64,000 nucleotides of DNA from Candidatus Deferrimicrobiaceae bacterium. Its GTDB lineage: Bacteria > Desulfobacterota > Deferrimicrobia > Deferrimicrobiales > Deferrimicrobiaceae. Numbering within the stretch: the stretch's first letter is position 1; each line of letters opens with the position of its first letter. Position numbers and translations under genes: made by a program. Below, piece by piece: positions 29,557 to 60,054 of the stretch. The stretch spans positions 320,001-384,000 of the forward strand of contig CAWBVY010000001.1 in NCBI GenBank assembly GCA_963792415.1, in the 5' to 3' direction. The notes under the pieces were generated by a model. The model made no database searches, was not told the DNA's origin, and worked only from the letters and a program-made list of their open reading frames with translations.

Positions 29557-29904
29557 TTACCACAGAGGCACAGAGTACGCAGAGATTTTTCCTTTTTTTC
29601 ATTGTCGGTGATCCCAGTACCATCTAATAGAGCTACGGGACAAGGAGGCCGACAATGAAAAACCAATCTACAATTTCTATGAAATTAAGTGCCGGATTTT
29701 ATTTATAGGCTGCAAAGCATATTCCACTGGGATCAAAGGATATGCCCCCCTTTAGGCAATAAAACACAATCTGTCGTAATCCCGGCGTCTATAGGAAAAA
29801 TTTAAAATTGAAGCGGATATCTTTATGTTTGCCGCCCTATCAACGGCAAACATAAAACAAGTACCCTCTTCTTCCTCCGTGCCTCGAGCGCAGCGGGTGG
29901 TGAA
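29557..29904. mobile_element. Intergenic element family 1, empty copy
   Basis: Left end ttaccacagaggcacagag; two subterminal hairpins; right end ccgtgcctc-gagcgcagcggg-tggtgaa. Confidence 0.65.
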
Positions 29905-29920
29905 AACCTAAAGAAAGATC

Positions 29921-30120
29921 TCACCACAGAGACACCGAGGACACAGCGAATTTTATTTTTCACCAAATCGGGAGACGACGATTTGATGAAACTTCTGTCC
30001 ACAAATATCCAAATTTCACCCCAGAAGGTGAGCGGTTTTCATTGAGCGATGTCTCCTGCTCAATGAAAAAAATCTTAAACTCTCAGTGCTCTCTGTGCCT
30101 CAAGCGCAGCGGGTGGTGAA
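29921..30120. mobile_element. Intergenic element family 1, empty copy
   Basis: tcaccacagagacaccgag...ctctgtgcctc-aagcgcagcggg-tggtgaa with two hairpins. Confidence 0.65.
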
Positions 30121-30159
30121 ACCCTATTGATCCCCAACCTCCATTTGCGCAGCAAATAA

Positions 30160-31311
30160 ATGTCCAAAATCGTTAAAGCCCTCGAAAAGTATAAAAAAGA
30201 ACACAACCTGACTTCGTCCCAGGTTTTCAATCTCGATCATGCGAAACCGCCTGAATCTGCACTGGATTCCGATGAAGACCAGTATATTCAGGAAAACGTC
30301 GATGCCGATGCGGCAAAAGAGTCGACGCAGCCGTATCCACAGCAAGAAGAAAGAATCGCTGTGCAAGTTGTTGATTCTCGCGAGGCATCGCAGCCGCAGG
30401 CTGATAGGCCTTTAAGTGAGCCGGCGAACATCGCGCCGAAACGAAGCCCCCATTTTGTTTTGGCCGATAAACAACCTGCAAAAACAGCATCCACAGAAAT
30501 CGAAAACAAAGGGAGGGTACCTCTCCTCGGTGACGAAAAGGCCAACCCGGCAACGCAACCACCAGAACTCACTTCGGCTGCCCCATCGGAGCCGACCTGC
30601 GCTTGCATGCCGTCAAATCGGTTCGCCCCGGACCTCATATCGATTGTCAATCCTCGCTGTGTCGAAGCGGAAATATTCAAGGTGCTGAGGGGTAAGATCC
30701 TTTTCCCGACTTCCGGCAAACCGCCGCGGTCCATAATGGTCACCAGCACGGTCCCGGGCGAGGGGAAATCCTTCGTTGCCGCTAATCTCGCCGTGAACAT
30801 GGCCCACAACATCGAAAAACACGTCCTGCTGGTAGACTGCGACATCCGCAGGCCGACCATTCACAAACTCTTTGGGATCGGCATGGTCAAGGGGCTGAGC
30901 GAGCACCTGTCGAATGGCAACAAGCTTCCCTCCTTGCTTCTCAAAACCGGAGTCGATAAGTTGACCATTCTGCCCAGCGGAACACCGCCCGCCAATCCAT
31001 CGGAACTCTTGTCCTCCGATAAAATGGCCGCCCTCATTGAGGAGCTCAAATCCCGCTATGATGACCGTTTTTTGATTATCGATTCCCCCCCGCCCATGCT
31101 GGGTCCGGAAACCACTGCCATCGCCAAGCAGGTCGACGGCATCATCGTGGTGATCAAGTTCGGCAGCACCCCGATGGATGCGGTCGAAGAGCTGATCGAC
31201 AACCTGGGCAAAGAAAAGATCATCGGCGCGGTCATCAACCGCTTCGATGGCCGCACCTCCAGATACTACGGCTACAAGAAATACGGGAAATATTACCGCA
31301 GCAAACCGTAG
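30160..31311 (+). CDS. Polysaccharide biosynthesis tyrosine autokinase (CpsD/CapB)
   Basis: PGEGKS Walker A, LLVDCDIRRP, IIDSPP, Tyr-rich C-terminus. Confidence 0.92.
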   Translation: MSKIVKALEKYKKEHNLTSSQVFNLDHAKPPESALDSDEDQYIQENVDADAAKESTQPYPQQEERIAVQVVDSREASQPQADRPLSEPANIAPKRSPHFVLADKQPAKTASTEIENKGRVPLLGDEKANPATQPPELTSAAPSEPTCACMPSNRFAPDLISIVNPRCVEAEIFKVLRGKILFPTSGKPPRSIMVTSTVPGEGKSFVAANLAVNMAHNIEKHVLLVDCDIRRPTIHKLFGIGMVKGLSEHLSNGNKLPSLLLKTGVDKLTILPSGTPPANPSELLSSDKMAALIEELKSRYDDRFLIIDSPPPMLGPETTAIAKQVDGIIVVIKFGSTPMDAVEELIDNLGKEKIIGAVINRFDGRTSRYYGYKKYGKYYRSKP

Positions 31312-31368
31312 GTTTGTGTTTGTTGCGGGTTGTGTGTTGATTCAAGAGAAGTAAGCAGAGCAGCTGAA

Positions 31369-31881: not shown

Positions 31882-31895
31882 TCCAAGAGAAAAAT

Positions 31896-33033
31896 ATGCA
31901 AATCCCTTTCTTAGATCTCAAAGCCCAATACAAACAAATCGAGTCTGAAGTCGTCCCCGCCGTCACCGAAGCCATGGCCACCGGTATGTTCATCGGCGGC
32001 CCCCAGGTGTCCGGCTTCGAAGACGAATTCGCCCAATTTTGCGACAGCAAATACTGCATCGGCGTCGGTTCCGGCACTGACGCCCTCCGCTTCGCCCTCA
32101 TGGCGGCCGGCATCGGCCCGGGCGACGCGGTCATCACGGTCCCCAACACCTTCATCGCCACCACCGAAGCCATATCCCAGGTCGGCGCCACCCCGATCTT
32201 CGTCGACGTCGACCCCAAAACCTACACCATGGACCCCCAAAAACTAGCCGATTTACTGAAAAACAATCATAACAACAATCAAACCCACAACAATCCAAAT
32301 CGCCAAAGGCGTTATCCCCGTCCACCTCTACGGCCAGCCGGCCGACATGGACCCGATCCTCGACATTGCCCGGCAATACGACCTTGTCGTCATCGAAGAC
32401 GCCTGCCAGGCACACGGCGCCTCGTATAAAAACAGGAAGGCCGGATCACTGAGCACGGCCGGCTGCTTCAGCTTCTACCCCGGAAAGAATCTCGGCGCCT
32501 TCGGCGAAGCCGGGGCCGTCGTGACCCAGGATGAAGAGATGGCACAGAAGATGCGCATGATCCGGGATCACGGGCAGGCGCAGAAATATTTTCACGACCT
32601 CGAAGGCTACAACGGCCGCCTCGATGCGATCCAGGCCGCGGTGCTCCGCATCAAGCTGAAGCGGTTGCAGGGCTGGAACCGATCCCGCCGGAAAAATGCG
32701 GCCCTTTACACCGAACTCTTGCAGGACGTTCCCGGCATTACGCTGCCCGTGGAAGCCGAGTTCGCCGAATCGGTCTATCATCTCTACGTGATCCTTGCAG
32801 ACAACCGCGATGGGCTTCAGAAGTTCCTTTCAGAAAAAGGCATCGCCACCGGCCTGCACTACCCGCTGCCGCTCCATCTGCAGAAAGCCTACGCTCACCT
32901 CGGCTATAAAAAAGGCGACTTCCCGGTCGCCGAGCACGCCGCCGAACGCCTCCTCTCGCTCCCCATGTACCCTGAGCTGACAGCAGAGCAGATCGATTAC
33001 GTCTGTTCATCTATCAGAGAATATTTTAAATAG
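31896..33033 (+). CDS. DegT/DnrJ/EryC1/StrS sugar aminotransferase, frameshift near 32290
   Basis: IPFLDL, GSGTDAL, IEDACQAHG, SFYPGKNLGA. Confidence 0.92.
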
Positions 33034-33036
33034 TAA

Positions 33037-33309
33037 TTCACCACAGAGGCACAGAGAGCACAGAGAATACTTTTTTCTTTTCCTTTGCCGGTAGACAGCG
33101 GCAAAGGAAAACCAATCTGCACTTTCTACGAAATGAATTGCTGGATTGTATTCATAGGCTGCAAAGCATATTCCACTCGGATCAGCGAAAAAATAGATAA
33201 CCGTAAAGCCTGCCGCAGGCATGAGTTTATTTCATTTGCCGGTATCTCCCGGCAAATGAATGAACTAGACTCTCAGTGATCTCTGTGCCTCGAGCGAAGC
33301 GGGCGGTAA
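33037..33309. mobile_element. Intergenic element family 1, empty copy
   Basis: ttcaccacagaggcacagagagcacagag 3 nt after a stop codon; two hairpins; right end ctctgtgcctcgagcgaagcgggcggtaa. Confidence 0.7.
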
Positions 33310-33327
33310 AAACCAAATAATAGATAC

Positions 33328-33679
33328 TAACCACAGAGACACAGGGAACACAGAGATATTTATTTTCTTTTCCTTTGCCGGTGCTTGCATCCCGTCTTGG
33401 CGGGGAAGACGACGGCAAAGGAAACCCAATCTGCCATCTGAGCAGGATTGCTTTACCTTCTTGAGTCTTTTGAACCTAATATAGAGGTGGCTATAAAATA
33501 CATTGGAGTTAAGTGTTCCATATTTGGAAAAACTTCTGAACCTTACTCCCACAGGGATGAGTCCTTTTGTTCAATCGTCGCCAGCCCGCCATCGCTCCCT
33601 CGCTCAGGCGAGGCGGGCGGGTCTCCCGATTGAACAAAAAATAAAAAATCTCTCAGTGTCCTCAGTGTCTCTGTGGTAA
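33328..33679. mobile_element. Intergenic element family 1, empty copy with nested mini-inserts
   Basis: taaccacagagacacagggaacacagag...ctcagtgtctctgtggtaa. Confidence 0.7.
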
Positions 33680-33742
33680 AAAACATCATTAAACTCTCTT
33701 CGCACTTTGCGTCTCAGCAGTGAATGAATTAAAGGAGGAAAG

Positions 33743-34754
33743 ATGATTAAAATAGGGCTTATAGGATACGGCTATTGGGGACCGAACTTGGCCCGCAACT
33801 TCCACTTCAACAACGACCTCGAGCTCATCGCCATCTGTGATTTTTCAAGCGATCGCCTGAAAGCCTCGTGCAAGCTCTACCCCCAAGTAGACTGCTATGA
33901 CAACGTCGACGATTTTTTCGCCAACACCGACATGGACGCCGTGGCCATCGCCACTCCGGTCGGCACCCACTTTGAGCTGGCCAAGCGGGCCATCGAGAGC
34001 GGTCGGCACCTGTGGCTGGAAAAGCCGATGACCGAAACGGTCGAGCAGGGCAGGGCAGCTGATCAAGCTGGCCAAAAAGAAAAAAAAGGTTCTCCTCGTC
34101 GACCACACCTTCGTCTACACCGGGGCGGTCCGCAAGATCAAAGACCTGATCCGCAAGGGCGAGCTGGGGCATATCATCTATTACGACTCGACCCGCATCA
34201 ACCTGGGACTTTTCCAGCAGGACATCAACGTCATCTGGGACTTGGCGCCGCATGACATCTCTATCATGGACTTTCTGATGCCCTTCGAAAAGGTGGCCGT
34301 TTCGGCTACCGGCAGCCACTATTACGGCAACGGCATTGTGCCTAAATCGCTTTTGACCATCTATATGGCCGCCGATATCGTCGCCCACATCAACGTGAGC
34401 TGGGTCTCACCGGTCAAGATCCGCCAGACCCTGATCGGCGGCAGCCTGAAGATGATTCTCTACGACGACACACACCCCAGCGAAAAGGTCAAGATCTACG
34501 ACTCGGGCGTGGACCTCGACTTTACCAAGGAGGAACTCTACCACATGAAGGTCCAGTACCGGGTCGGGGACATGTACGCCCCCAAGCTGGAAGGCCACGA
34601 GGCCCTGGCTCTCGAAACCGAACATTTCGTCGACTGTCTGATCAACGGCACCGAGCCCTTGACCGGCGGCCGCGAAGGCCTCCAAATAGTAAAAATCCTC
34701 ACCGCTGCCGAGCAGTCCCTAAAAAACAAAGGCACTCCCGTCGAATTGGTGTAG
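33743..34754 (+). CDS. Gfo/Idh/MocA oxidoreductase, frameshift near 34050
   Basis: GYGYWGPN, IATP, EKPM, WDLAPHD. Confidence 0.9.
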
Positions 34755-34756
34755 GA

Positions 34757-35131
34757 TTCACCGCAGAAAGAACAAATTTCACCACAGAGGCACAGAGGGC
34801 ACAGAGATATTTCCTTTTTTTCATTGTCGGTGTGAGAGGCCGACAAGCAAAAGACAACTCACTGCAATAAATACTGAATATTGTAGATCTGCGTTTATTA
34901 CTGGATTATAGTACATAGGGTATGAAAACAACTGATTGTAAGGGTCGCAAATGAACTCCCTGTGACTCATGAGTGGAAAAACATAACTTCTTCGTCTCCG
35001 TGCCTCAGCGACGGATCTTCATTTGCCGGTCCTCTCACGGCAAATGAATATAATCAAATTCTCAGTGATCTCAGTGCCTCTGTGGTTAAAAACATCATTA
35101 AAGCTTGCGCTCTCTGTGCCTCTGTGGTGAA
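34757..35131. mobile_element. Intergenic element family 1, nested copies
   Basis: Left ends at 34757 (truncated) and 34778; right ends at 35089 and 35131. Confidence 0.65.
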
Positions 35132-35139
35132 TAATATTA

Positions 35140-35510
35140 ATGGACATCAATCAGCTAACCAGCAAGATCATCGGTGCGGCAATAGAGGTTCACAAAACAA
35201 TTGGTCCTGGTTTGTTAGAGGGGATATACGAAGACTGTTTATGCATTGAGTTAGAAAGGCGAGGAATTCCTTTTGAGCGGCAGAAAAGGATTGATATCGA
35301 ATATAAAGGAGTAAAATTAAATAATCAATATCGACTTGACCTTGTTGTCAATAACATGGCTGTAGTTGAACTAAAACCGTAGATGAACTCGCACCAATTC
35401 ATGATGCTCAGGTATTGACCTATCTCAAATTAACGGGCTTAAAGGTTGGTTTGCTCATCAATTTTAATACTGCAATACTTAAGGACGGTATAAAGCGTTT
35501 GATAATGTAG
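35140..35510 (+). CDS. GxxExxY protein (PD-(D/E)XK-like), frameshift near 35375
   Basis: [31 protein letters not shown]; AQVLTYLK...GLLINF in next frame. Confidence 0.9.
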
Positions 35511-35834
35511 AGTCAAGAGGTGATCATTACTTTTGCCCTATCGCCGTCTCCCGATAGGACAAAAAACAAAATATCTCTCAGTGTCCTCAGTGTCGCTGTG
35601 GTAAATAAATAGCATCTTTTCTTAATTTTTCCAGTGCTTAAAGAAGGTATAAAACGACCTGTACCGTAGATTTACGAATTGCCGGAATTTCATCGACATA
35701 GCCTGCCGCAGGCATGAGTGTGTTTCATTTGCCGGTATCCTCGCCCCGTAGCTCCAGCAGATGGTACCGGGGTTCCGGCAAATGAAATAAATATATCCTC
35801 TTTGCTCACTCTGCGCCTCTGTGGTAAATAAATA

Positions 35835-36304: not shown

Positions 36305-36818
36305 TGAGTTTATTGTGTTAATTGAGTGTAAAACAAGTGATTGAAATGGAAAAAAACGGCGCTCAGTCTCCTTGCAGTTCCCAATACATTAGTGTATGGT
36401 TATCATGCGCTATGGATTAGGAGATGATGAATGAAGCCGCACGTTCCTAACAAACATAACCAATAAAACTGATAAAACCAATTCAAAAAAACGAATTGTG
36501 TTATCTTATATAACCCATATTCCGGAAAACTTTTTGAAAAACATTTCATTACAGTTTGTTAGGCGTCTCATTTTATGGGCTACAATTCTGGTGACGAAAT
36601 CGTAAACCCCCATCAATTGTGCCGCTATAACGTTTTTGAAAATTATTTTCCGGATTAGGGGCTATAACCAAAATTTTCTTAGAAAATGAAAATTATATAC
36701 GATCAAGAAACCGACACCATGTTCTTGCCAACAATGTTTTCGTGAAATATTCGAGCAGACAGGGTTTGACCGTAAATTGTTTTAAATTATCCACAGGTAA
36801 AATCTTGGAGAAGGAAAA

Positions 36819-36995
36819 ATGAGAGGTATCCAATATGTAGTGGATGATTCCGGCCGGAAGAAGGCTGTTATCATCGACCTGGAAGAATGGGGAGAGTTGT
36901 GGGAAGATTTCTCTGACATACTCGTCTCCGAAACGCGACGAGAAGAGCCGGTTGTACGGTGGGAAAAGCTAAAAGCCGAAACAATGAAAAAATAG
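36819..36995 (+). CDS. Small antitoxin
   Basis: MRGIQYVVDDSGRKKAVIIDLEEWGELWEDF, 58 aa, RBS present, directly upstream of RelE. Confidence 0.7.
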   Translation: MRGIQYVVDDSGRKKAVIIDLEEWGELWEDFSDILVSETRREEPVVRWEKLKAETMKK

Positions 36996-37008
36996 ATCCA
37001 AAGCATCG

Positions 37009-37263
37009 ATGTATAAAATTGAATTATTGAAATCTGCAGCGAAAGAGTTTCGTGATCTGGATGATACAACAAAGAGGCGAATCACTGAAAAAATAGATAA
37101 ACTGATTGAGGAACCTCGCCCTAGAGGAGTACGAAAGCTTAGAGGGCATAAAAGTCTATATAGGATTCGCGTTGGATCTTTCAGGATCGTTTATGATATT
37201 AATGAGGAAATAGAATTGATTCAAGTAACCAGGATCAGACATCGAAGTGAAGTATATAAATAG
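37009..37263 (+). CDS. RelE/ParE family toxin
   Basis: PRPRGVRKLRG...YRIRVGSFRIVY...IRHRSEVYK. Confidence 0.9.
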   Translation: MYKIELLKSAAKEFRDLDDTTKRRITEKIDKLIEEPRPRGVRKLRGHKSLYRIRVGSFRIVYDINEEIELIQVTRIRHRSEVYK

Positions 37264-37394
37264 GAAGAGTTTGCTATCATTTTTACCCATTGGTGCTCCG
37301 GACAAAAAAACCCATTTAATCCTGCCTGCCCTGTTAAATCATTACCATTTAACCGGGGTAGCCCCTGCAGACGGTACTGGGGTCAACGATAAAT

Positions 37395-37591: not shown

Positions 37592-37789
37592 TCTTGTATT
37601 GACGATAATGAATGTGAAGACATTGAATTAGAAGTTATTTTTTCGCCTCAGGCGATTGGATTTTTTAACTTTCGTCCGGAAAGTTAAAAACAAAAAGAAT
37701 CCTAAAAATCCAGTAAATCCTGTCCAATAAATTCATTTCTGTGTTTTATACATTGGTTGACTGTCGTAGCATATTGAGGAGGAAACCAT

Positions 37790-38053
37790 ATGCTTATTGA
37801 ATATGTCAATAAAGCAATGAGTAAGGCGGTGTACGATAAGATGGATGATGGCACTTTTAATGGAAAGATACCGCAGTGCCCCGGCGTTGTCGCCTTTGGA
37901 GAATCACTATATCAGTGCGAGCAAGAGTTGAGATCCTCTCTTGAAGGATGGTTAATTGTCAAAATAAGACATGGCGATAAACTTCCGGTGATTGGAAAAA
38001 TAAACTTAAACAAAAAAATGCCGGATATTCGAGGGGCTACCGTGAATGGCTAA
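37790..38053 (+). CDS. hicB: HicB family antitoxin
   Basis: GKIPQCPGVVAFGESL...LEGW...LPVI. Confidence 0.85.
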   Translation: MLIEYVNKAMSKAVYDKMDDGTFNGKIPQCPGVVAFGESLYQCEQELRSSLEGWLIVKIRHGDKLPVIGKINLNKKMPDIRGATVNG

Positions 38054-38276
38054 ATGGAGGCCTTGCAAACGAAGGGATTTCATAAAAAAGCTTAAGAAGC
38101 TCGGTTTCGGCTCACCTGAACCGGGCGGCCGCCATTTTTATATGCGTTATGGTTCATATACATTTACGCTACCAAGCAACAAGGAATTCTCTGTTCAGCA
38201 AGTCAAAATGCTCATAGATGAGATTGAACATGGGATAGGGAAGAATATTTCAATTGAAGAGTGGGAAAAGCTATAG
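38046..38276 (+). CDS. hicA: HicA family toxin
   Basis: KKLKKLGF...GGRHFYM; overlaps hicB. Confidence 0.82.
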   Translation: MAKWRPCKRRDFIKKLKKLGFGSPEPGGRHFYMRYGSYTFTLPSNKEFSVQQVKMLIDEIEHGIGKNISIEEWEKL

Positions 38277-38813: not shown

Positions 38814-39044
38814 ATGAATGGCTTTATAGTTGTCGATCCGAAAATTTGCTCGGTAAAACCGGTTATCAAGGGCACGTGAATCATGGTGAAAAACATCCTT
38901 GGCATGGTGGCTGGCGGATATTCAGCGGATAGAATTTTGGAGGCTTATCCTGAACTGACACGTGAAATGGTTCAAGCGGCATTGGAATATGCTGCCATCG
39001 TAATTGACGAAGAGCAAGTTATTGGTACGATTGCCTCATCATAA
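38814..39044 (+). pseudogene. DUF433 antitoxin with internal stop
   Basis: IVVDPKICSVKPVIKGT*IMV...ILEAYPELT...AALEYA; TGA at the conserved Arg of GTRI. Confidence 0.75.
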
Positions 39045-39546: not shown

Positions 39547-39668
39547 TGGCCGGAGTGCCACGGAACCGCCTTTGAAATTGTTGCCGAGAGGAGATTCTTA
39601 ATAAGTTTTCCACTTTTTATTTGCACTTATTTGAGTTAAGATCAAATTATAAATCTTTTCTATAGTCA

Positions 39669-41375: not shown

Positions 41376-41387
41376 GCATAAAATCGC

Positions 41388-42194
41388 GTGCGATTTTATA
41401 AGGCCATCATACCGGCGGCCGGTTTAGGGGAACGGTTGCACCCGGTTACCCAGGTGTTACCCAAAGAGATGTTTCCGGTTGGACGCCACCCGGCGATCGA
41501 ATGGGTGATCGCAGAGGCCGTGGCCGGTGGCTGCCGGGAAATAGCGGTCGTCATCAGCCCCCGCAAGCAGGTTATACGGGAATACCTCACCAAATACTGC
41601 AGCATCGCCTCGTCACTTTGCGAACTGACGTTTATTATCCAATCCGAGCCTTTGGGTTTGGGGCATGCCCTGCTGCTGGCGAAGGAATTCGCCGACGGGC
41701 AGCCGGTTGCCGTTTTGCTGCCGGATGAGCTGACTGCCGGAACCCAGCTGCCGATTCTGCAACTCAACGAAGCATTTACAGACCTTGGGTGGTGCTGTTT
41801 TTGCCCTGGGGTCGGCGGAGTCTGCCGCCAACCCCGAGCTGGTCGGAGCGGTGGCATCTGACAAAAGTCGACAGCCGAATCTATAAGGTGCAGCCGTCTC
41901 GAGCCGGCGCATCATCGGAAAAAAGACCGGACCAATTCGCGGGAATGGGGCGCTATATCCTCTCACCCGAGTGCCTCGATGACGCGGCCTCCCTGTTCAA
42001 TGAAAGACCCCACGCGCGGCCTCGACGACGGAATGATCTTCGAGTTCATGTGTACCGCCGACAAACCCGTTCACGGTTATGTCTTCGAAGGCCGGCGTTT
42101 CGATATTTCAACGGTCGCCGGCTACATAGACGCCTGGCAGACCCTGGGAAATTCGGACCCCCTTAGCCTTTTTCCTCAAATCCCGGCTATTTGA
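41388..42194 (+). CDS. Sugar-phosphate nucleotidyltransferase (GalU-like), frameshifted
   Basis: KAIIPAAGLGERL.P...PKEM, QSEPLGLGHA, GRYIL. Confidence 0.8.
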
Positions 42195-42211: not shown

Positions 42212-42554
42212 TTCACCGCTAGAGGCACAGAGGCCCGCCTGCCTTTCCTGCAGTGAGCCGGATGAAGCTAAAATGTATTACACATGTGGACTACTGACAA
42301 ACTTTATGTTGGATAGTCCCCAACGATGAATGATTGGAACATATAAGATCTGTCGGCTGACGTTGATAAGTTGATTTCACAGTATATTCATAACCTCGGC
42401 CGCAGGGATAGAGTTCTTTTGTTCAATCGATCTTTCCCGATTGAATAAAAACTGAAATACTTACTCTTGCGACCTCTGTGCCTCGCAGCAGAGCGGGTGG
42501 TTAAAAATTCAAAACATCATGTGACCTCTGTGTCTCGAGCGAAGCGGGCGGTGA
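42212..42554. mobile_element. Intergenic element family 1 copy with doubled right end
   Basis: ttcaccgctagaggcacagag; hairpin ttcaatcg...cgattgaa; right ends at ~42504 and 42554. Confidence 0.6.
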
Positions 42555-42915
42555 GCTCATTTCTAAACATGAAAGCGTACTCACAAAAAACAACCACCAT
42601 CAAGCGCTTTTAACCCGATTTATGCCCATCCACGGTTTCCTGCTATTTCTTTTCTCCACAGAACTATTACCTCGATGTAACAGCCCAATTAAGTGTAGTT
42701 CATTGTAAAACAAACCCCAACCATATAACTATCCAATTATTATCAAATTTTCCGTTAGCCTGTATTCCCGCGCAATTTTCCACTCATTCGTTAACGGCAT
42801 CTAAATTGCTGTTATTAATTGTTCTGTATCTATGACCTGCGACGAACAACATCCCCAGGATTTATTCTTTACCGTTTCGAAGGACCCTGGTGGGACCACT
42901 AAAAGAAGGTGCGCT

Positions 42916-51900: not shown

Positions 51901-52624
51901 TCGACGACAACCACTTTTGAGCTGATGGATGCCGGCAGCATGCCTGTACCCGCCGTTGTCACTTACAACGGTTCAACTCGGACGGCGACCCTGATCCCGG
52001 CTGCGGCGCTGGCAAACACGGCGACCTACACGGCCGTTGTCAGGGGAGGGGCTGTTGGTGTGACCGATGCGGCCGGCAACCCGTTGGTCGCCAATCACAG
52101 CTGGTCGTTCACCACTGCTGCCGCTGGGACATCGGTTTCCTACAGCTTGTGGGACAATACGTTCACCCCGGCAATTCTGTCCGATTCGGATACCAGTGCG
52201 GTGGAGCTGGGGGTAAAGTTTCAGAGCAATGTCAACGGGTACATCACGGCCCTGCGGTTCTACAAGGCTGCAGCGAATACCGGCACGCACGTGGGCAACC
52301 TGTGGACCGCCAGCGGCACGTTGTTGGCCAGTGTGACCTTCACCAACGAGACCGCCTCAGGGTGGCAGGAGATGGCACTGCCGTCACCGGTGGCGATAAC
52401 CGCCAACACGACCTACATAGCCTCCTACCACACCACCGTGGGGCGCTACTCGGCCAATTCGGCCTACTTCACTTCCGCCTATGACAATTCCCCGTTGCGG
52501 GCGCCGTCCAGCAGCGCGAGCGGCGGCAACGGCGTGTACCGGTACGGCGCAGCCAGCGCGTTTCCCCACCGACACTTGGAATGCAAGCAACTACTGGGTC
52601 GACGTGGTGTTTCAGGAGCAATGA
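42916..52624 (+). CDS. Giant secreted protein: 5x DUF4082, about 12 Ig-like (Big_5) domains, PHP-type metallohydrolase and deacetylase-like domains; many frameshifts
   Basis: Repeated VELGVKF...ITALRFYK...NETASGWQ...NYWVDVVF; DTTPPTV...TFSE.MDP...D.AGN...WSFTT; WYAGDMHVH...AGSDF; TGDDH...EIGLH...RQHC. Confidence 0.8.
44406..45610. repeat. About 3.5 near-identical 342-bp tandem repeats (Ig-like domains)
   Basis: gtcacggcgaccttcagcg recurs at 44406, 44748, 45090, 45433. Confidence 0.9.
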
Positions 52625-52645
52625 AATTGAATGTTCAATATCGGG

Positions 52646-52941
52646 CTCACCGCAGAGGCGCTAAGGATGCAGAGAATTTTGGATTTTTTGCTTTTCGCTG
52701 AGACGCCGAAAAGCAAAAAGCAACTTGCCCTTCGAATACAAGTGTCGACAAAAGAGTTATCAATTTAATTGGAAATAATAGATCACTTTAGATAATATCA
52801 GTCGGGATTATTCGCCAAAGGCGACAGCGTTTTTATGTTTTCCAGCGTCCCTGTCTTGTTGAATGAAAAGCAAATTCAACTGGGACCAGCGGAAAACATA
52901 AAGAAGAATAAGCTCTGCGCTCTCTGGGTCTCTGCGGTGAA
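52646..52941. mobile_element. Intergenic element family 1, empty copy
   Basis: ctcaccgcagaggcgctaag...ctctgggtctctgcggtgaa with two hairpins. Confidence 0.7.
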
Positions 52942-53232
52942 TAATAAATATGTTGAGTCATACAGCCGATCCGTCTCCGGCAAACATAAAGGGCAATCCG
53001 CATTAAATGCGATAATTTCACGCCAAATTTCTAAAACTTAAAAGTTGTCACGAGCTTTAACCTCTTAGCACACAGAAGAAAGATAGAGATGCATGCAGTT
53101 TTGATTTCCTTTATCGTCCACTCAACGATAAAGGAAAAAAATATTTAAACTCTGCGCCCTCTGCGTCTCGAGCGAAGCCCCGGTGAAATGGCTTTCTGAT
53201 TTCACAGGGTAGGCGGGCGGTGAATTCCTAAA

Positions 53233-53628
53233 ATGGACATCAATCAACTAACCAGTAAAATCATAGGCGCAGCAATTGAAGTTCATAAACATCTCGGTCC
53301 AGGACTCTTGGAATCGGCTTATGAAGAATGCCTTTGCCATGAATTAGAATTGCGCAGAATCAGATTCGATAGGCAGAAACCATTACCGATAGAATACAAA
53401 GGACGGAAGCTTGACTGTGGCTACAGACTCGATGTCCTGGTAGAGGATAAGGTTGTTTTAGAATTGAAATCCTGTGAAAAAATTGAACCTATCCACAAGG
53501 CACAGTTGCTGACATATCTCAAACTATCGAATATAAATTTAGGCTTACTGTTGAATTTCAATAGCATAACAATGAAAGAAGGAATAGTGCGCATCGCAAA
53601 TGAACTTCCCGATCGACAGGTAAATTAG
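53233..53628 (+). CDS. GxxExxY protein, intact
   Basis: [37 protein letters not shown]. Confidence 0.93.
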
Positions 53629-53747
53629 TAGAGATTAAATCGTTTTCATTTCCGACCTCTCAACGGAAATGAAAATAATAAAACTACTCTGCGCTCTCTG
53701 CGCCTCGAGCGAAGCGGGCGGTGAAACATTTAAAAAAGGACAACCCT

Positions 53748-54960
53748 ATGCCCGAATCTCCCAAAATTATCCCCGTTGCCCGCCCCTGGCTCGACGAACG
53801 CGAAGCCGAAGCCGCCAAGCGCCCCATCATGAGCGGCTGGGTCACCCAGGGGCCCGAGGTGGCGGCCTTTGAAAAGGAGTTTGCCGACTACGTCGGGGCG
53901 AAGCATGCCTGCGCGGTGTCGAGTTGCACCACGGCCCTTCATCTGGCGCTTTTGGCCGTCGGCGTGAAACCCGGCGACGAGGTGATCACCGTCAGCCATT
54001 CCTTTATCGCCACGGCCAACAGCGTCGTGTATTGCGGCGCCAAGCCGGTTTTTGTGGATATCCAGCCGGAGACCTTCAACATCGACCCCAACCTTATCGA
54101 AAAGGTCATCACAGCCAAGACGCGCGCCATCCTGTGTGTGCACCAGATGGGGATGCCCTGCGATTTGGCGGCGATCACGGATCTTGCCAAAAAGAAGGGT
54201 CTGCCGGTCGTTGAAGATGCTGCCTGTGCCATCGGCAGCGAAATTCTGTGGAACGGGAATTGGGAAAAAATCGGAAAGCCGCAGGGCGATGCGGCCTGTT
54301 TTTCGTTTCATCCCCGCAAGGTCATCACGACCGGCGACGGCGGCATGATCACAACCGACAACGCGGAATGGGACAAGTTGTTTCGCCTCTTGCGGGTCCA
54401 CGGCATGAGCATGGACAGCTCGGCCAGGCATCGAGCCGGAAGCGTCGCGTTTGAATCCTATCTGGATCTCGGATATAATTACCGCATGACCGACATTCAG
54501 GCCGCCATCGGCCGCGAGCAGCTCAAACGCCTGCCGGAAATCGTTGCTCAGCGCCGGAAACTTGGGGATCGATACCGAAAACTCCTTGCCGACATTCCAG
54601 GGGTAATCCCTCCCTCAGAGCCCACATGGGCGCGGAGCAACTGGCAGAGCTACTGTGTGCGACTTACCGGAAGGGTGCGACCAGGTCAAGGTCATGCAGG
54701 AAATGCTCGAGGCCGGGGTTTCGACAAGACGCGGCATCATGTGCTCTCACCGGGAACCGGCCTACGCCAACGAACAGCCGTGGTCGTGCGGCAACGGACC
54801 CGGCGATTGCGGCTGCCCGCCCGGTAGCTGTAAAAACTTACCGGAAAGCGAGAACGCCCAGGATCACAGTATCTTACTGCCGCTCTATCATCAAATGACC
54901 GAGGAAGACCAGGACCGTGTGGTCGAGGCTCTCAAATCCGCTTGCAGTGCTAAGAAATGA
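53748..54960 (+). CDS. DegT/DnrJ aminotransferase, frameshift near 54665
   Basis: SSCTTALHL, VEDAACA, SFHPRKVITTGDGG, GYNYRMTD. Confidence 0.92.
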
Positions 54961-55427
54961 ATTCACCACCCGCTTCGCTCGAGACGCAGAGTGCGCAGAG
55001 AAAAGAATATTCATTTTCCTTTGCCGTTGAGAGGACGGCAAAGGAAAAAATCGTCTTTGCTGCAGGTTTAAGGTACTTTTGTTAATCGTTATTTAAGACA
55101 GCTTTTTTAATATCGAAGTCGTTCAAAGCAGTATAATCAGTGTTGCCACTGTCTATCAGATTACAAAGATAAATTTTTAGAGGTTCATTGCCACTAACCC
55201 CAGTACCATCTGCCAGAGCTACCCCAGAGGAATAGGCTACACATTCCACGGGGCAGGCGCGGCAGGGAGGATGGCAATCATAAAGAATAATCTGCTTTAA
55301 ACACGAGCACAACTTGACATGAAATATGTGATGCATGAGCTGTTTCACAACACCACTTGTAACAACCAAATAATATGTGTATTTTGTATTGGATAGGGAC
55401 AACAGTACGTTTTTAAAGGAGGTAATA

Positions 55428-55722: not shown

Positions 55723-55867
55723 TAAGTACCTGAAGCAGTTCCGGCAAGCTGTTGGAAAGTTTGAAAGTTATGGATATGCAGAATCAGTAGAGATTAGAGA
55801 AGAAATACGGCCAAACAAACAAGCGGTTGTCAAAGCAAAAATCGTCCTCATTGATAGGAGATAAGAA

Positions 55868-56071
55868 ATGGAAACAATAGACAAAAAATTCATTGTCGAT
55901 GAGGACAATAAAAAAATAGCAGTACAAATTCCCATTGAAACCTTCGAAAAAATTGAAAAAGTTTTGGAGAATTATGCTCTATTCCAATTGATTAAAGAAA
56001 ATGAAGGTGAAGAAATTTTTGGACTGACAGAGGCAAAGGCATATTATGATCGGCTGGAAAAGACACAATGA
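55868..56071 (+). CDS. Small antitoxin-like protein
   Basis: KFIVDEDNKKIAVQIPIETFEKI; similar type to 36819; partner truncated after an ATGA overlap. Confidence 0.6.
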   Translation: METIDKKFIVDEDNKKIAVQIPIETFEKIEKVLENYALFQLIKENEGEEIFGLTEAKAYYDRLEKTQ

Positions 56072-56346
56072 AAATCGCTATTTCCCTTAACTCGAAAGAT
56101 TATAGTGGCCTAAATTTCCTTAAAAAAATCGTGACTATTTGTTTTGTTCGGAAGTTCCAAAAATAGCTTCGGGGCCTGCCCTGCTTGCCCTGTTAAATCA
56201 TTCCCATTTAACCGGGGTAGCTCCGGAAGACGGTACCAGGGCCTGCCCCGTAGCTCCAGAAGATGGTACTGGGGTCAACAACAAAGGAAAAAAGAAACAA
56301 AGCACTCTGTGCCCTCAGCCTGCCCAGTTAAATTGCCGGAAAATCA

Positions 56347-56636
56347 ATGTATTATACTTACGTTTTATTGAGCAAGTTGGATAGAGCCCTTTATGTAGGA
56401 TTCACTAATGATTTAAAGAAAAGACTTTTAGAACACAAAAAAGCTTGGTCCCCTCGACTAAACCAAGACGACCCCTAATGCTTATTTATTATGAAGCATG
56501 TTTAAATAGAAATGATGCTGTTAAAAGAGAAAAGTATTTTAAGACTGGTTATGGAAGACGTTTCCTTAACGGTCGATTGGAAAATTACTTAAAGAGTATT
56601 GGTAAATCAGGCACGCGACCAGACGGTTTCGTTTAA
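56347..56636 (+). CDS. Small GIY-YIG nuclease, frameshifted
   Basis: YYTYVLLS...LYVGFTNDLKKRL.EH...TKPRRP..LIYYEA...A.KREKYFK. Confidence 0.8.
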
Positions 56637-57037
56637 GCTTAAAAGAATATCTAGTAGTACATAGATAGGTTTTTAAGACAAAGGTTATAATAAACACAAA
56701 ACTCTGTATTCTCTGCCCCCCGCCTGCCTCGCCTGAGCCCGCCTGCCTCGTAAGCTTTGCGGGCAGGTCCGCCCTCCTGCCAAGCAGAGTGAGGTGGACG
56801 GGTCTGAGGTAAAAAATCTAAACGGAGAATCTGCGAACAGTTGACCTCCGGCAAACATAAATTGATTCCGCTTCGATAGTGGTCCTTGGATTACATTAGG
56901 GAAACTGAAATAATTTTGCTTATGTGCCTGCTATAAGCGTCGATGACAGTGTAATTTTTCTTTGTCGTCAACTCAAAGACAAAGAAAAAAGTCAAAACTC
57001 TCTGCTTTCTCTGTGCCTCTGTGGTGAAATTATTATT

Positions 57038-57200
57038 ATGACTTCAACTTCCCAAAACACCACCATCACAACTCTCTTGGCAGAAGAAATACCACCAACG
57101 GATGAGAAATCCCCTGCTGAAAAAGACACTTACGGCCAGATACTAAAGTCCTCAGCCTTGGTTGGCTGCTCTTCGGTACTGAATATCGGATTCGATATTC
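57038..57200 (+). pseudogene. Diverged 5' fragment of the O-antigen translocase
   Basis: MTSTSQNTTITT...TYGQILKSSAL matches the N-terminus at 60068. Confidence 0.85.
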
Positions 57201-57281
57201 TTGCGCGAAGGTTTTTACCATGTCTCATTTAGAACCGTAAATGAATCGGAACGATATGACTATGAGTGAAAGGAAAAAGTA

Positions 57282-58286
57282 ATGGAAACATGTTTAGTGA
57301 CAGGTGGTGCAGGATTTATAGGTTCGCATGTAGCTAAAAATCTAATCGATAGCGGATATAAAGTCATCGTATTAGATGATTTGAGTGGCGGATTTATGGA
57401 AAATGTGCCATCAAAAGCAGAATTTATTGAGGGAACAATAACTGATAGGAATTTAATTAATGAAATCGTAAAAAATCAAAAAATTGATTATATTTTTCAC
57501 CTCGCGGCATACGCTGCTGAGGGCTTAAGCCATTTTATAAAAAAATTTAACTATGAGAACAATTTAATAGGCTCCATTAACCTCATTAATGCAGCTGTAA
57601 ATTACAATGTCAGATGTTTTGTTTTTACATCGTCAATAGCAGTGTACGGTACTGCGCAATTACCAATGACAGAAGACATGACGCCAAAACCGGAAGATTC
57701 GTATGGAATAGCCAAATATGCAGTCGAATTAGAGCTAAAAGAAACACATGAAATGTTTGGTTTAAATTACATCATTTTTAGACCTCATAATGTTTATGGA
57801 GAGCATCAAAATATTGGAGACAGATATAGGAATGTAATTGGAATTTTCATGAACCAATTAATGAATCATAAAAATATGACAATATTTGGGGATGGGCAAC
57901 AAACAAGAGCCTTTACCTACATAGATGATGTCGCGCCAGTGATAGCAAAATCAATAGAAGTAAAGAATTCTTACAATGAAGTTTTTAACATAGGAGCTGA
58001 TAAAGCATACACTGTCAATGAACTTGCCAAAATTGTCGCAAAAAAGTTTAAGAATGAGTTTAATATAGATTATTTAGAACCAAGAAAAGAAGTCGTTCAC
58101 GCATTTTCAGATCATAAAAAATTAGAAAATATATTTGGAAACAATCCTAAAATACGGTTAGAAGAAGGTATTGAAAAAATGGCAAAATGGGCATTAAAAG
58201 TTGGGCCTAGGAAAAGCCAAAAATTTGGTAGCATTGAAATACTAAAAAATATGCCTGATAGCTGGAGGAAAGAGTTTAGCGATTAA
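57282..58286 (+). CDS. NAD-dependent epimerase/dehydratase (AT-rich)
   Basis: [24 protein letters not shown]. Confidence 0.92.
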   Translation: METCLVTGGAGFIGSHVAKNLIDSGYKVIVLDDLSGGFMENVPSKAEFIEGTITDRNLINEIVKNQKIDYIFHLAAYAAEGLSHFIKKFNYENNLIGSINLINAAVNYNVRCFVFTSSIAVYGTAQLPMTEDMTPKPEDSYGIAKYAVELELKETHEMFGLNYIIFRPHNVYGEHQNIGDRYRNVIGIFMNQLMNHKNMTIFGDGQQTRAFTYIDDVAPVIAKSIEVKNSYNEVFNIGADKAYTVNELAKIVAKKFKNEFNIDYLEPRKEVVHAFSDHKKLENIFGNNPKIRLEEGIEKMAKWALKVGPRKSQKFGSIEILKNMPDSWRKEFSD

Positions 58287-58343
58287 ATACAAACTATTAC
58301 AATAAGTTTAAGCTCCATACACATAACATATAGAGGGTCATCT

Positions 58344-59296
58344 ATGAAAAAACCCTTAATGCTGACAATATCGATCGTAAATACAAATAATAGAGACTTG
58401 TTAAGGAACTGTTTAATATCCATATATGAAACCGTAAAGAGATACAGGTACGAAATAATATTGGTCGATAATTGCTCGAAAGACGGTAGCGTTGAGATGG
58501 TAATGAAAAATTTTAAAGATGTCATTATCATTCAAAATAAAGGTACAATGGGATACGGATTCTGTCATAATCGTGCAATTAAAATAGCAAGAGGTAAATA
58601 TGTTTTAATTTTTAATGAGGATATGATTGTCAAAAAAAATGCCATTGATTTAATGATTGAGAGGATTGAAAAAGATGAAACAATAGGCGTATTAGGTTGT
58701 AAACTTTTAAACCCTGATGGAAGTATACAATACTCTAGCTGCTCAAACTTTCCAAGTATAAAGCAACATATTGTTGATACATTCATACCGACGAATAGTG
58801 GCTTTAAAAATAATAAAAATAGAAGATTTTTATATTTTTTTGACTATAAAACTGAGAAGGATGTTAACATAATACAAGGTAGTTGCATGTTAATACCAAA
58901 AAAAGTTTTAGATGATGTAGGAATATTTGATACGCAGTTTTTCGTTTATTCTGAAGAAGACGATCTTTGCAAAAGAATAAAGAACGGTGGCTATAAAATT
59001 ATTATTATATCCTGATGCTGAGATCATACATATTGGCGGACAAACATCAAAAAAAATGTCACTGAAGGATGGCGTTGATAATGATAGAGAGTAAAATAAA
59101 ATATTATCAAAAACATCACAGCAGGATAGAATTGACAATGTTTAAAATGATATATTTCTGTGGAAGTACTTTTAGATTAATTGGCTGGAGTGCAGCAGCC
59201 CTCACGAAAGCATACGACAAAAAATACTGTAAAGAAAACATTATTTTGAATCTCAAATCTTTAGAGTTAATAAGTAAAAAATTATTAGAAATTTAA
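58344..59296 (+). CDS. Glycosyltransferase family 2 (AT-rich), frameshifted
   Basis: ILVDNCSKDGS, GSCML, FFVYSEEDDLCKR, IHIGGQT. Confidence 0.88.
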
Positions 59297-59450
59297 TAAA
59301 AAGTAAAGATAGAATATCAAACCACAATTAACAACAAACTTTCCGCGTTCACTATCATGTAGACTTATTCCAGCTGAGTTTAAGGTTTTAAAGGAATCAC
59401 TGCAGGGACGATGAAGACGCAAAGAGTTTTTGTTATAATAATTTTCGCTG

Positions 59451-60054
59451 AAACCCGCCTTCCTCGCCTGAACCCGTCTGCTTCGCAAGCATTGCGGGCA
59501 GGCGAGAGCTATGGCGGGCAGGGGGCGGAGAGATGATTAAATTTTTTCATTGTCGGTGAGGGGCCGACAATGAAAAAGGCATCCGCCTTTTCTGATTTAC
59601 ATTCTTATTGAATCGTAGTCGATAATTTTGCGTTTGATCCATTACTCATCAATTGGGCGTTAAAAGATGGAAGACAGCATAGTAAGGAATCGCAAATGAA
59701 TTGCCAGAGTGACCAAATAAACTTGTAGAGGTTTCCCTTATTCATTCCCGGTAGTCCCTGTCCAGTTGAATGCAAGCATATTCACTGGGATCACGGGAAT
59801 GAATAAATAAATAATATTCTCCTGTGCCCTCCGCGCTTCGAGCGAAGCGGGCGGTGAATAGCAAATTGGATTTACTGTTGAATTTCATACCTGTACCATG
59901 AAACAAGGTATCTCCAGAGAAGAAAGTGTATTACCTGTGTGACCATATAAAACCTGCGGAGATTATCCATATTCATTTTCGTCCTCTCAACGAAAATGAA
60001 TATAAAAATATTACTCTCTGCGTCCTCCGCGTCTCGAGCGCAGCGGGTGGTGAA
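59451..60054. mobile_element. Family 1 copy followed by a GxxExxY remnant and a second hairpin/right end
   Basis: Hairpins at ~59541, 59738, 59969; right ends at 59858 and 60054. Confidence 0.6.
59865..59920 (+). pseudogene. GxxExxY C-terminal remnant
   Basis: ttactgttgaatttca identical to ~53545; reads LLLNF...MKQGISR. Confidence 0.6.

Follow-up and report, generated by a model that had tools for sequence, protein, structure and literature searches.

GxxExxY genes and inverted heptamer-array ends form one small unit that recurs between operon genes across bacterial and archaeal phyla

Two genes of the GxxExxY family (PF13366/TIGR04256) lie in a polysaccharide locus of Candidatus Deferrimicrobiaceae bacterium (assembly GCA_963792415.1), where at least eight gene-less or decayed copies of a short intergenic repeat element surround them. 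The locus is part of a 64,000-nt stretch of contig CAWBVY010000001.1 (positions 320,001 to 384,000, forward strand), which is called the window here and whose coordinates are used for all its features. Analysis of the window together with other genomes shows that the GxxExxY gene and the inverted ends around it are one unit, spread over phyla, and that these elements reside in the spacers between co-directional genes of operons. Gene and ends very probably constitute a mobile unit with gene-less derivatives. As to what drives this unit, we lean, without great assurance, towards reading the repeats as the ends of very small selfish elements that are mobilised by the GxxExxY protein, a predicted nuclease of the PD-(D/E)XK fold. 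The element family is widespread and apparently undescribed. A literature search, with most subscription journals and supplements outside its scope, found no publication describing these ends or a role for GxxExxY. In the available part of a 2024 review on MITEs (miniature inverted-repeat transposable elements; PMC10969869) the words nuclease and RAYT are absent, and a classification of the fold, in the part available, gives the function of the PF13366/GxxExxY family as 'Unknown' (PMC3424549).

Both ends of the element are built alike. Each starts with TTCAC, runs on through three heptamers of the form C-R-C-N-N-A-G that lie 8-9 nt apart, and is often followed by a hairpin with the loop TGAGAGG; the other end is the inverted counterpart. 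When 40 pairs of ends are aligned on the first heptamer, conservation begins at TTCAC and ceases outside it. Elements that bear a GxxExxY gene measure 426-727 nt and occur in two forms: a short one in which the ends touch the open reading frame (ORF), so that the left end is translated as the N-terminus of GxxExxY, and a long one with hairpins.

The link between gene and ends was followed through relatives of the window's protein, of which 538 were found with one genome taken per species. We analysed the best 80 loci, at 61-78% identity; having been found with a single protein query, they represent close relatives and not the whole family. Their hosts include Thermodesulfobacteriota, Acidobacteriota, Planctomycetota, Verrucomicrobiota, Nitrospirota, Chloroflexota, Actinomycetota, Patescibacteria, Methanoperedens, Methanothrix and others. 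Flanks of the full 160 nt were available for 76 loci, and in 53 of these an inverted repeat with a score of 12 or more flanks the gene, against 2 in the reversed control and 11 in the complement control. A second pass placed the gene between inverted ends at 50 of 74 loci, which span no fewer than 15 phyla and include archaea. Exact arrays of three heptamers have a density of 3.8 per kb up to 220 nt from the gene and of 0.17 per kb beyond that in the same 80 loci, a 22-fold difference. The preliminary description of the window had named the co-occurrence of ends and GxxExxY genes as a test of its proposal, and this concentration of ends at the genes across many phyla agrees with it.

The usual order in these loci is left end, gene, right end: a forward array lies upstream in 58 of the 80 loci, a reverse array downstream in 48, and both are present in 36. 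The window itself departs from this order: a reverse array lies on each side of the gene. This minority form, with a right end 5' of the gene, recurs in only 2 of the 80 loci, a rarity that the preliminary description did not recognise, and makes it probable that the window's copies have been rearranged. The regular arrangement is found in G048, a distant genome of the same phylum. All five of its PF13366 genes are set between inverted three-sub-repeat ends of their own, with the sub-repeat types CACAGAG, CACGAAG, CACAAAG, CGCGGAT and CACGAAG/CACTAAG. The end motif has 33 matches in G048, on many contigs, and is present in none of 36 genomes of the window's own family.

Within the phylum, 151 genomes were sampled, of which 52 carry a PF13366 gene. 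The strict end pattern was detected in 39, some of them with 25-70 matches, and its reversed control in none. Gene and pattern occur together in 27 genomes, the pattern alone in 12, the gene alone in 25 and neither in 87 (odds ratio 7.8; Fisher p 3e-7, a value that overstates significance as the relatives are not independent). Of genomes with five or more end matches, 21 out of 25 carry a GxxExxY gene. A looser pattern of two heptamers was dropped as too permissive in a GC-rich genome, where it gave 147 matches.

Evidence for mobility comes from phylogeny, from the distribution of copies and from the comparison of orthologous sites. On the protein tree, host phylum changes 27 times (the minimum possible being 14). 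For the end type, CAC or CGC, there are only 6 changes; shuffled labels average 11.4, and none of 300 shuffles is as low. End type thus follows the protein tree and host phylum does not, so the ends travel with the gene and not with the host. Four congeners (G066, G141, G172 and G106) contain 70, 55, 41 and 27 strict end matches, and many 29-mers are identical at dozens of sites. Gene-less copies, 75-350 nt long, are bounded by the same ends as the gene-bearing form. The polymorphism at orthologous sites that the preliminary description had expected of a mobile unit was found for gene-less copies among close relatives. Between two nir-like genes, for example, an 84-nt copy is present in G048 where G064 has a 4-nt spacer; the GxxExxY element beside it is common to both genomes, with different heptamer types in both arms, and at that site G063 has ends only, without a GxxExxY gene. 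A 125-nt copy is shared by G066 and G172, and 32-36 unrelated nucleotides stand in its place in G106 and G141, in flanks that are about 90-96% identical. A copy in G066 sits precisely in the middle of a second palindromic element, a position at which G172 has nothing and G106 an element of a third kind.

The gene-less copies appear to descend from gene-bearing ones, as the preliminary description had supposed, because three of those in the window enclose remnants of the GxxExxY C-terminus (34874-34961, 59638-59709 and 59857-59936). The last of these, which had been reported near 59865, is supported weakly, by a tblastn match of E 0.07 and a second co-linear piece.

Where the strand could be called, the upstream neighbour of an element is co-directional in 23 cases and opposed in 1, and the downstream neighbour in 20 and 3. 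The left end usually follows the upstream stop codon by 2-20 nt, and in 17 of 24 loci a long ORF begins 4-38 nt after the terminal GGTGA. Since the elements often end shortly before the next start codon, the downstream ribosome-binding region would remain usable and the operon would still work.

How the two arms agree with each other hints at what they are for. Heptamers were placed on the left arm by pattern, so the information lies in the agreement of the right arm. Mismatch between left and right amounts to 3% in the terminal TTCAC and 0-2% at heptamer positions 1, 2, 3, 6 and 7, against 24% and 9% at positions 4 and 5 and 45% in the spacers of 1-3 nt. Transitions between arms would yield G·U pairs in a transcript 37 times and A·C pairs 43 times, without a bias towards G·U. 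At the level of sequence, the arms are thus shown to be conserved as arrays of short motifs at fixed spacing and not as halves of a stem; agreement in the heptamers, not in the spacers, and the missing G·U bias make them look like predicted protein-binding arrays, possibly sites for a multimeric protein, rather than an RNA stem. The hairpins of the long form have an invariant loop, TGAGAGG on the left and its complement on the right. TGAGAGG occurs 59 times in the vicinity of GxxExxY genes or within the window's locus; in 43 of these cases 10 or more of the 14 arm positions pair, and the distribution is bimodal. As these sequences were chosen by pairing, the high percentage paired is partly a product of selection. 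In an alignment of 42 of the 43 (L016, with 10 of 14 paired, was excluded) all 14 pairs vary on both sides, with values that no shuffle out of 500 attains. The stems contain few G·U pairs, in about 9 of 532 cells against 32 other mismatches.

In the window the copies are numerous, and the layout given in the preliminary description, from end through spacer and hairpin to a variable interior and back, was correct. Allowing up to 3 mismatches, its 20-nt end motif, TTCACCRCAGAGRCACAGAG, is found at 12 places in the window and at none in any of 100 dinucleotide shuffles. A slightly relaxed motif has 13 matches in the whole genome (2.84 Mb on 11 contigs, 72 kb of it masked), all 13 at window positions 29556-57028. 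The only PF13366 matches of the genome are the two GxxExxY genes, both inside the polysaccharide locus, and the element copies are restricted to this single locus, an observation that goes beyond the preliminary description. Reading of the intergenic stretches gives an outer TTCACC, two or three heptamers (CACAGAG, CACTGAG or CGCAGAG, spaced 8-9 nt), a T-rich spacer, a hairpin, a variable interior and an inverted counterpart that closes with GGTGAA; the right-end termini read GGTGAA or GGTAAA. Left ends were found at 29556, 29920, 33037, 33327, 34757/34778, 42212, 52646 and 54962 (with an insert), within 1 nt of the positions first listed. Of the copies listed there, that at 42212 has a weak left end and that at 59451 a left part of a different, GC-rich type. 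In about half of the ends an extra block, CTCGAGCG(A/C)AGCGGG(C/T), adjoins the terminus. It includes GCGAAGC or GCGCAGC, which we take to belong to a class of very stable DNA mini-hairpins. Extended to the terminal GGTGA, as CTCGAGCG(A/C)AGCGGG(C/T)GGTGA, this insert occurs 8 times in the genome, each time in the polysaccharide locus.

Both GxxExxY genes follow one right end and precede a hairpin and another right end, as had been described, and two sub-families can be told apart. CAC-type ends at 29.5-42.5 kb, with one more at 57.0 kb, go with the gene at 35140, whose product is acidic at residue 89 and has a short C-terminus. CGC-type ends at 52.6-60 kb surround the gene at 53233, which has K89 and a long C-terminus. 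The features are as follows.

29556..29906, plus strand: gene-less element 1, CAC type; left end 29556-29584, hairpins 29596-29657 (with a nested palindrome in the loop) and 29824-29856, right end 29870-29906 with the GAGCGCAGCGGG insert.
29920..30122, plus strand: gene-less element 2, CAC type; left end 29920-29948, hairpin 30040-30075, right end 30080-30122 with insert; its terminus is 38 nt upstream of the start of the ParA-like kinase gene (30160).
33037..33312, plus strand: gene-less element 3, starting 3 nt past the DegT stop at 33033; right end 33268-33312; interior about 85-90% like that of element 1, by reading of the sequences without an alignment.
33327..33682, plus strand: gene-less element 4; left end 33327-33357, hairpins 33369-33426 and 33559-33638, right end 33646-33682.
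34757..35091, plus strand: gene-less element 5, starting 2 nt past the GFO/MocA stop; left end 34778-34806, hairpin 34818-34848 (loop TGAGAGG), GxxExxY C-terminal remnant 34874-34961, hairpin 35019-35051 (loop CCTCTCA), right end 35059-35091.
35098..35133, plus strand: solo right end, CAC type; GGTGA 9 nt upstream of the ATG of GxxExxY gene 1.
35140..35510, plus strand: GxxExxY gene 1, with one frameshift near 35375, 60% identity to gene 2 and no long C-terminal tail.
35531..35607, plus strand: hairpin 35531-35566 and right end 35574-35607, directly 3' of gene 1.
35723..35830, plus strand: nested-palindrome hairpin 35723-35793 and right end 35797-35830, 4 nt upstream of the hexapeptide transferase ATG (35835).
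42212..42556, plus strand: degenerate element; weak left end 42212-42233, hairpin 42416-42449, right ends within 42464-42556 (42464-42500 and 42518-42556).
52646..52943, plus strand: gene-less element, CGC type; left end 52646-52676, hairpins 52688-52725 and 52838-52896, right end 52911-52943.
53106..53227, plus strand: hairpin 53106-53138 (loop CCACTCA) and right end 53150-53227, which is broken by about 40 nt and has its GGTGA 10 nt upstream of the ATG of GxxExxY gene 2.
53233..53628, plus strand: GxxExxY gene 2, intact, 131 aa (PF13366 E 3e-46; TIGR04256 159 bits).
53644..53727, plus strand: hairpin 53644-53674 (loop CCTCTCA) and right end 53686-53727 with insert, between gene 2 and the next DegT gene.
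54962..55048, plus strand: left end with inverted insert 54962-55000 and hairpin 55014-55048 (loop TGAGAGG), 2 nt past a DegT stop.
56286..56343, plus strand: degenerate right-end-like stretch, directly upstream of a broken GIY-YIG gene (56347-56633).
56948..57030, plus strand: hairpin and right end (56996-57030), CAC type; GGTGA 10 nt upstream of the ATG at 57039.
59451..59860, plus strand: gene-less element with a GC-rich left part of different type; hairpins 59544-59577 and 59744-59802, GxxExxY C-terminal remnant 59638-59709, right end 59815-59860 with insert.
59857..59936, plus strand: GxxExxY remnant, the last approximately 30 residues, by tblastn.
59969..60056, plus strand: hairpin 59969-60003 (loop CCTCTCA) and right end 60013-60056 with insert, upstream of a flippase-like gene (60068).

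In the window, too, the elements fill the spacers closely. Left ends at 33037, 34757 and 54962 start 2-3 nt past the upstream stop codon, and right ends at 35133, 35830, 53227, 57030 and 60056 terminate 4-25 nt ahead of a start codon. The gap between the GFO and hexapeptide-transferase genes, 1081 nt here, is 13 nt or a 4-nt overlap in homologues of the same genus. The polysaccharide gene cluster itself runs along the plus strand from 27.8 to 61.7 kb and contains genes for Wzz/GNVR, a ParA-like kinase, two DegT aminotransferases, a GFO/MocA oxidoreductase, hexapeptide transferases, epimerases, a nucleotidyl transferase, a GT2 glycosyltransferase and a flippase, with a giant Big_5/DUF4082 repeat gene in the middle. 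This low-GC locus (36-55% G+C, against 63-73% in the first 16 kb of the window) is horizontally acquired. Many of its genes are split into two or more frames, namely DegT (31896-33033), GFO/MocA (33743-34754), nucleotidyl transferase (41388-42194), Big_5/DUF4082 (42938-52701) and flippase (60068-61662). This points either to decay of the acquired locus or to indel errors of the assembly in low-GC DNA, and the cause bears on whether the GxxExxY gene at 35140 is truly broken.

The preliminary description had seen no transposase or integrase within the elements, and none of these families was recognised in the 119 stop-to-stop frames (at least 45 aa) from the window's intergenic fill. The same frames contain only RelB-like/ParE (36801-37260), HicB/HicA (37778-38273), DUF433 (38880-39041), a second RelB-like gene (55865-56068) and the frameshifted small GIY-YIG nuclease gene at 56347-56633, which has the degenerate right-end-like stretch directly before it.

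Other repeats were noted in and beside the locus. A palindrome of about 30 nt with the core CCGTAGCTCCAGMAGATGGTAC occurs three times in the genome, always in the locus (29617-29638, 35746-35767 and 56248-56269). Two copies, at 29617 and 35746, occupy hairpin loops of elements, as though insertion were aimed at the tips of hairpins; the copy at 56248 lies outside every listed hairpin. A GC-rich repeat (CCCGCCTGCCTCG and relatives) at 33609, 56719-56750 and 59451-59535 twice stands in for a heptamer-type left end, and may be a nested element or a further type of end. Immediately upstream of the locus lies a duplicated stretch of some 390 nt (27000-27388), with its second copy, of 94% identity, at 25553-25944; the stretch is conserved at 84-94% in most genomes of the genus, often in two copies, and overlaps a minus-strand ORF of 140 aa (26979-27401).

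The protein at the centre of the unit belongs clearly to its family. That of gene 2 scores 156.9 bits against PF13366 (PDDEXK_3; cut-off 22) and 159.2 bits against TIGR04256 (cut-off 35), and the first frame of gene 1 scores 97.4 bits against PF13366. Among 78 aligned sequences, with 8 of the 80 loci excluded because the match runs through a stop codon, G24, E27, Y30, E37, D67, E77 and K79 are invariant; in gene 2 the predicted catalytic residues are E37, D67, E77 and K79, followed by the stretch Q91..Y95. An AlphaFold model (mean pLDDT 94.1, pTM 0.87) was compared with known structures using VIA-align wide. The best matches are all PD-(D/E)XK nucleases, led by the nuclease domain of BpuSI (Z 7.8, root-mean-square deviation 3.0, 94 aligned residues) and by SSO0001 (Z 7.4, root-mean-square deviation 4.8, 103 aligned), which has the same fold as lower-ranked chains titled Cas4. 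Further matches are NucS, Hjc, AdnAB/AddAB, alkaline exonuclease, MGME1, Dna2 and tRNA-splicing endonucleases (Z 5.1-5.2). As Z stays below 8 throughout, the model supports the PD-(D/E)XK fold and leaves the sub-family unassigned. PADLOC returned only weak matches to Cas4 profiles (E 2e-4). The sequence search of PDB gave no usable solved structure (best E 0.057), and ESM Atlas no usable match after exclusion of PF13366. Residue 89 (K or E) and the C-terminal tail separate CGC-type from CAC-type elements across 34 typed loci. We also observed that C33, C35 and C62 of the protein encoded at 53233-53628 are at least 90% conserved in the sub-family and missing from the distant paralogues of G048; going by conservation, they may form a metal site.

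From these parts a route of movement can be proposed. The full element would consist of TTCAC, three heptamers, in the long form a T-rich spacer and a hairpin, one GxxExxY ORF of about 125 aa, and the inverted end. Multimers of GxxExxY would attach to the heptamer arrays of the two ends and cleave at the boundary marked by TTCAC, and the freed or copied segment would enter AT-rich intergenic DNA or the centres of other palindromes by way of host repair or recombination. Entry of this kind would leave no target duplication and would often replace a few tens of bases. The association of gene and ends, the invariant catalytic residues and the resemblance of the arms to arrays of binding sites make GxxExxY the best available candidate for the enzyme that moves the element, a role to which we give an even chance or slightly more.

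A number of observations speak against a mobilising GxxExxY. No detectable PF13366 gene accompanies the end pattern in 12 of 39 genomes, among which G083 (25 matches), G151 (27), G070 (14) and G114 (14) are rich in ends, and 25 genomes have the gene without the strict pattern. A clean insertion junction was seen at none of four polymorphic slots, where filled and empty alleles differ by replacement, and none of the 40 end pairs has a direct repeat of the target site outside the ends. In the source genome all copies lie within a single acquired locus, many of them decayed, and there is no sign of activity. Some gene-less copies combine arms of different heptamer types. On the side of the protein, every fold match lies below Z 8, in the range that the tool calls common arrangements, and a nuclease of about 125 aa is without obvious strand-transfer activity. 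The link of end type with residue 89 and the C-terminal tail is inseparable from shared descent, with a single independent pair on supported branches. Finally, G048 has a four-helix-bundle gene of a non-nuclease family (TIGR02436) framed by analogous sub-repeat ends: in locus L093 (contig C33), 385-725, the gene lies between inverted ends of the 7-nt sub-repeats GGTTTAC / GTGAACC, alike in design and different in sequence, so the architecture needs no nuclease inside. TIGR02436 is the '23S rRNA IVS protein' family.

Several of these points would suit GxxExxY as mere cargo, that is, as a selfish nuclease of addiction or defence type, or an autoregulator binding the heptamers, in an element that is moved in trans by a RAYT-type transposase of the Y1/HUH class, by a host recombinase or by recombination between copies. 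The four end-rich genomes without the gene fit this explanation, as do the four-helix-bundle gene and GIY-YIG genes with repeat flanks of their own. Different element families in the same slot of congeners point the same way, since they may use a shared route of entry that is independent of the family. Y1_Tnp matches are present in four of five genomes checked (19 in G048, 5 in G066, 5 in G083, 1 in G151); the fifth, the source genome, has none. Against it, the one Y1 gene of G048 whose flanks were read is bordered by repetitive extragenic palindromes (REPs) with a GTAG hairpin and not by heptamer ends, and a RAYT was rejected as the mover for this single copy. Moreover, the end type tracks the GxxExxY tree, the end sub-types in the window cluster with the gene of matching type, the catalytic residues are invariant, and the ends hug the ORF to the point of encoding its N-terminus in the short form. 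We regard cargo status as unlikely, though it is the most serious of the alternatives to GxxExxY as mover.

Less probable still, and in our estimate a poor prospect, is that the repeats act at the RNA level. Here they would be co-transcribed modules whose ends pair into a stem cut by RNase III, whose hairpins set mRNA stability and whose GGTGA serves as ribosome-binding site, with GxxExxY possibly an RNA-processing nuclease. The strong co-orientation with neighbouring genes and the short distances from right ends to start codons, in the window and elsewhere, are what such modules would display; the hairpin loops TGAGAGG and CCTCTCA are mutually complementary, and the PD-(D/E)XK fold includes the tRNA-splicing endonucleases found in the fold search. 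The arms, however, show no selection for pairing, neither in their spacers nor in the kind of transitions between them, and the hairpin stems contain few G·U pairs. Copies of mixed heptamer type could not form a clean stem, and Rfam 15 has no match at gathering score within the window. Among sequencing runs, none of RNA was listed for the stretch 52600-54000, and the DNA runs listed contain it only at a small share. Nor would such modules explain the spread across phyla or the dispersed identical copies. As for local debris, with duplications or assembly errors in the acquired locus and a merely coincidental adjacency to GxxExxY, the restriction of the copies in the source genome to one 30-kb locus and the doubtful assembly quality suggested by its many frame-split genes would fit, but GxxExxY genes of dozens of unrelated genomes have these ends beside them, the ends are scattered across many contigs in G048, G066 and further genomes, and the reversed-pattern control has no match in any of the 151 genomes, so this explanation is already contradicted and has next to no credibility left.

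Among known systems, REPIN-RAYT is, by analogy, the closest in logic, and Correia-type MITEs and rRNA intervening sequences with a small ORF are closest in context and form. None of the features that define these systems, be it a Y1 transposase, a GTAG hairpin, a target duplication or a location in rRNA, is found in GxxExxY elements. RAYTs are mostly single-copy and vertically inherited, and GxxExxY genes differ in being multi-copy and horizontally transferred. Otherwise the likeness to REPIN/RAYT is considerable, judging from the available text of PMC3116915: a small nuclease-type gene between short inverted repeats of its own, dispersed gene-less intergenic doublets, the lack of a target duplication and the joint inheritance of gene and repeat type. 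What sets the two apart is the fold, PD-(D/E)XK here and HUH/Y1 in RAYT, and the ends, TTCAC with three heptamers in one case and a GTAG-type hairpin in the other (PMC3116915, same part). Both kinds coexist in G048, where true RAYT genes with their GTAG-hairpin REPs are distinct from GxxExxY elements. As a separate observation, RAYT-like Y1 transposase genes with classic GTAG-hairpin REPs lie at 7880-8680 of locus L001 and 10939-11598 of locus L116. The latter, a 575-nt insertion in G066, reads in translation as a RAYT-like gene and not as a GxxExxY element; it is absent from the site in G172 and, over the stretch covered, in G106.

Correia elements have a TA duplication at their ends, and no TA-like duplication is seen in the 40 GxxExxY end pairs. 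According to the available parts of PMC2649163 and PMC10969869, the Correia elements of Neisseria and other MITEs resemble the gene-less copies in being short, bounded by terminal inverted repeats, intergenic beside genes, co-transcribed and polymorphic between relatives, and in lacking an assigned mobilising enzyme. Correia elements differ, in the same parts of these sources, in that GxxExxY elements have an ORF-bearing parent, no selection for arm pairing and an unrelated sequence. As in MITEs at large, there are short non-coding copies (75-350 nt) with terminal inverted repeats; they are multi-copy and dispersed in G048, G066, G141, G172 and G106 and limited to one locus in the source genome. 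A target-site duplication and a parent with a known transposase are lacking, as the parent form encodes GxxExxY only. The intervening sequences of 23S rRNA with an S23p/four-helix-bundle ORF, as in Coxiella (PMC4990558, in the part available), are likewise tiny units bounded by inverted repeats that carry one small ORF and keep the transcribed unit intact, and the four-helix-bundle gene of G048 has ends built in an analogous way. GxxExxY elements differ from these (PMC4990558, same part) in lying between protein-coding genes, in their PF13366 ORF and in their end sequence, and the source genome has no PF05635 match.

Nuclease-based systems offer further comparisons. Free-standing homing endonuclease genes of phages are small nuclease genes that occur sporadically between conserved operon genes without target duplication, and repair-mediated copying as in homing would fit the replaced flanking bases at filled GxxExxY sites. 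Homing is directed at one cognate site, whereas GxxExxY copies are present at many unrelated intergenic sites, which argues against a single homing target; they also have long structured inverted ends and gene-less multi-copy derivatives. With Cas4/RecB-type nucleases GxxExxY shares the fold, the catalytic D...ExK, the weak Cas4 profile matches and presumably the Q..Y stretch after the core, as in RecB-type nucleases. It differs in being a minimal core of about 125 aa; neither an Fe-S cluster domain nor partner genes were found. TnsA of Tn7 is a PD-(D/E)XK nuclease that takes part in transposition together with the DDE transposase TnsB, and no TnsB-like partner is encoded in the 119 frames of the window's intergenic fill.

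Further mini-elements came to light in the same genomes. In G048, GIY-YIG genes with their own repeat flanks are found in L094 (contig C30), 375-760, and L096 (contig C58). One small GIY-YIG gene lies directly 5' of a tRNA gene and has a partial copy of the 5' half of the tRNA upstream; another is flanked by C5/G5-rich palindromes, and a like palindrome is a gene-less insert in G066 (L116 12580-12714). Four congeners (G066, G172, G106 and G141) differ in the family of small palindromic element that fills a given intergenic slot. The heptamer, CAGC, GGTTCAC, GTCATTCC and C5/G5 families replace one another there in flanks of about 90-96% identity. The slots lie at 1293-1397, 4020-4175, 6068-6190, 9364-9582, 12580-12714 and 17315-17449 of L116 (G066, contig C11, 28001-48000) and at the orthologous positions of G172, G106 and G141. 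One unit of 155 nt is present in the congeners in dozens of copies with 90-94% identity.

If GxxExxY is taken as the mover, a broader reading suggests itself, which we offer tentatively and consider more doubtful than the element's dependence on GxxExxY. The elements may represent a new class of prokaryotic mobile element, with a minimal PD-(D/E)XK nuclease of about 125 aa that reads the three-heptamer array at each end and moves the element without a recombinase of DDE, HUH, serine, tyrosine or Cas1 type. They would then be one of a guild of mini-elements that compete for the same slots and palindrome centres in bacteria and archaea, with the four-helix-bundle genes (GGTTTAC-type ends), the GIY-YIG genes (C5/G5 palindromes) and further gene-less families as proposed members.

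PF13366/TIGR04256 is a large family, and its tie to a defined DNA architecture turns a function recorded as 'unknown' into one that can be tested at the bench. The elements account for odd repeat-encoded N-termini of predicted proteins, for a large part of the 'junk' that separates genes in polysaccharide and other operons, and for the rapid turnover of intergenic DNA between close relatives. Should the nuclease not be the mover, they would still be an abundant and undescribed MITE-like family; should it be, prokaryotic transposable elements would have a route of movement that is free of a recombinase.

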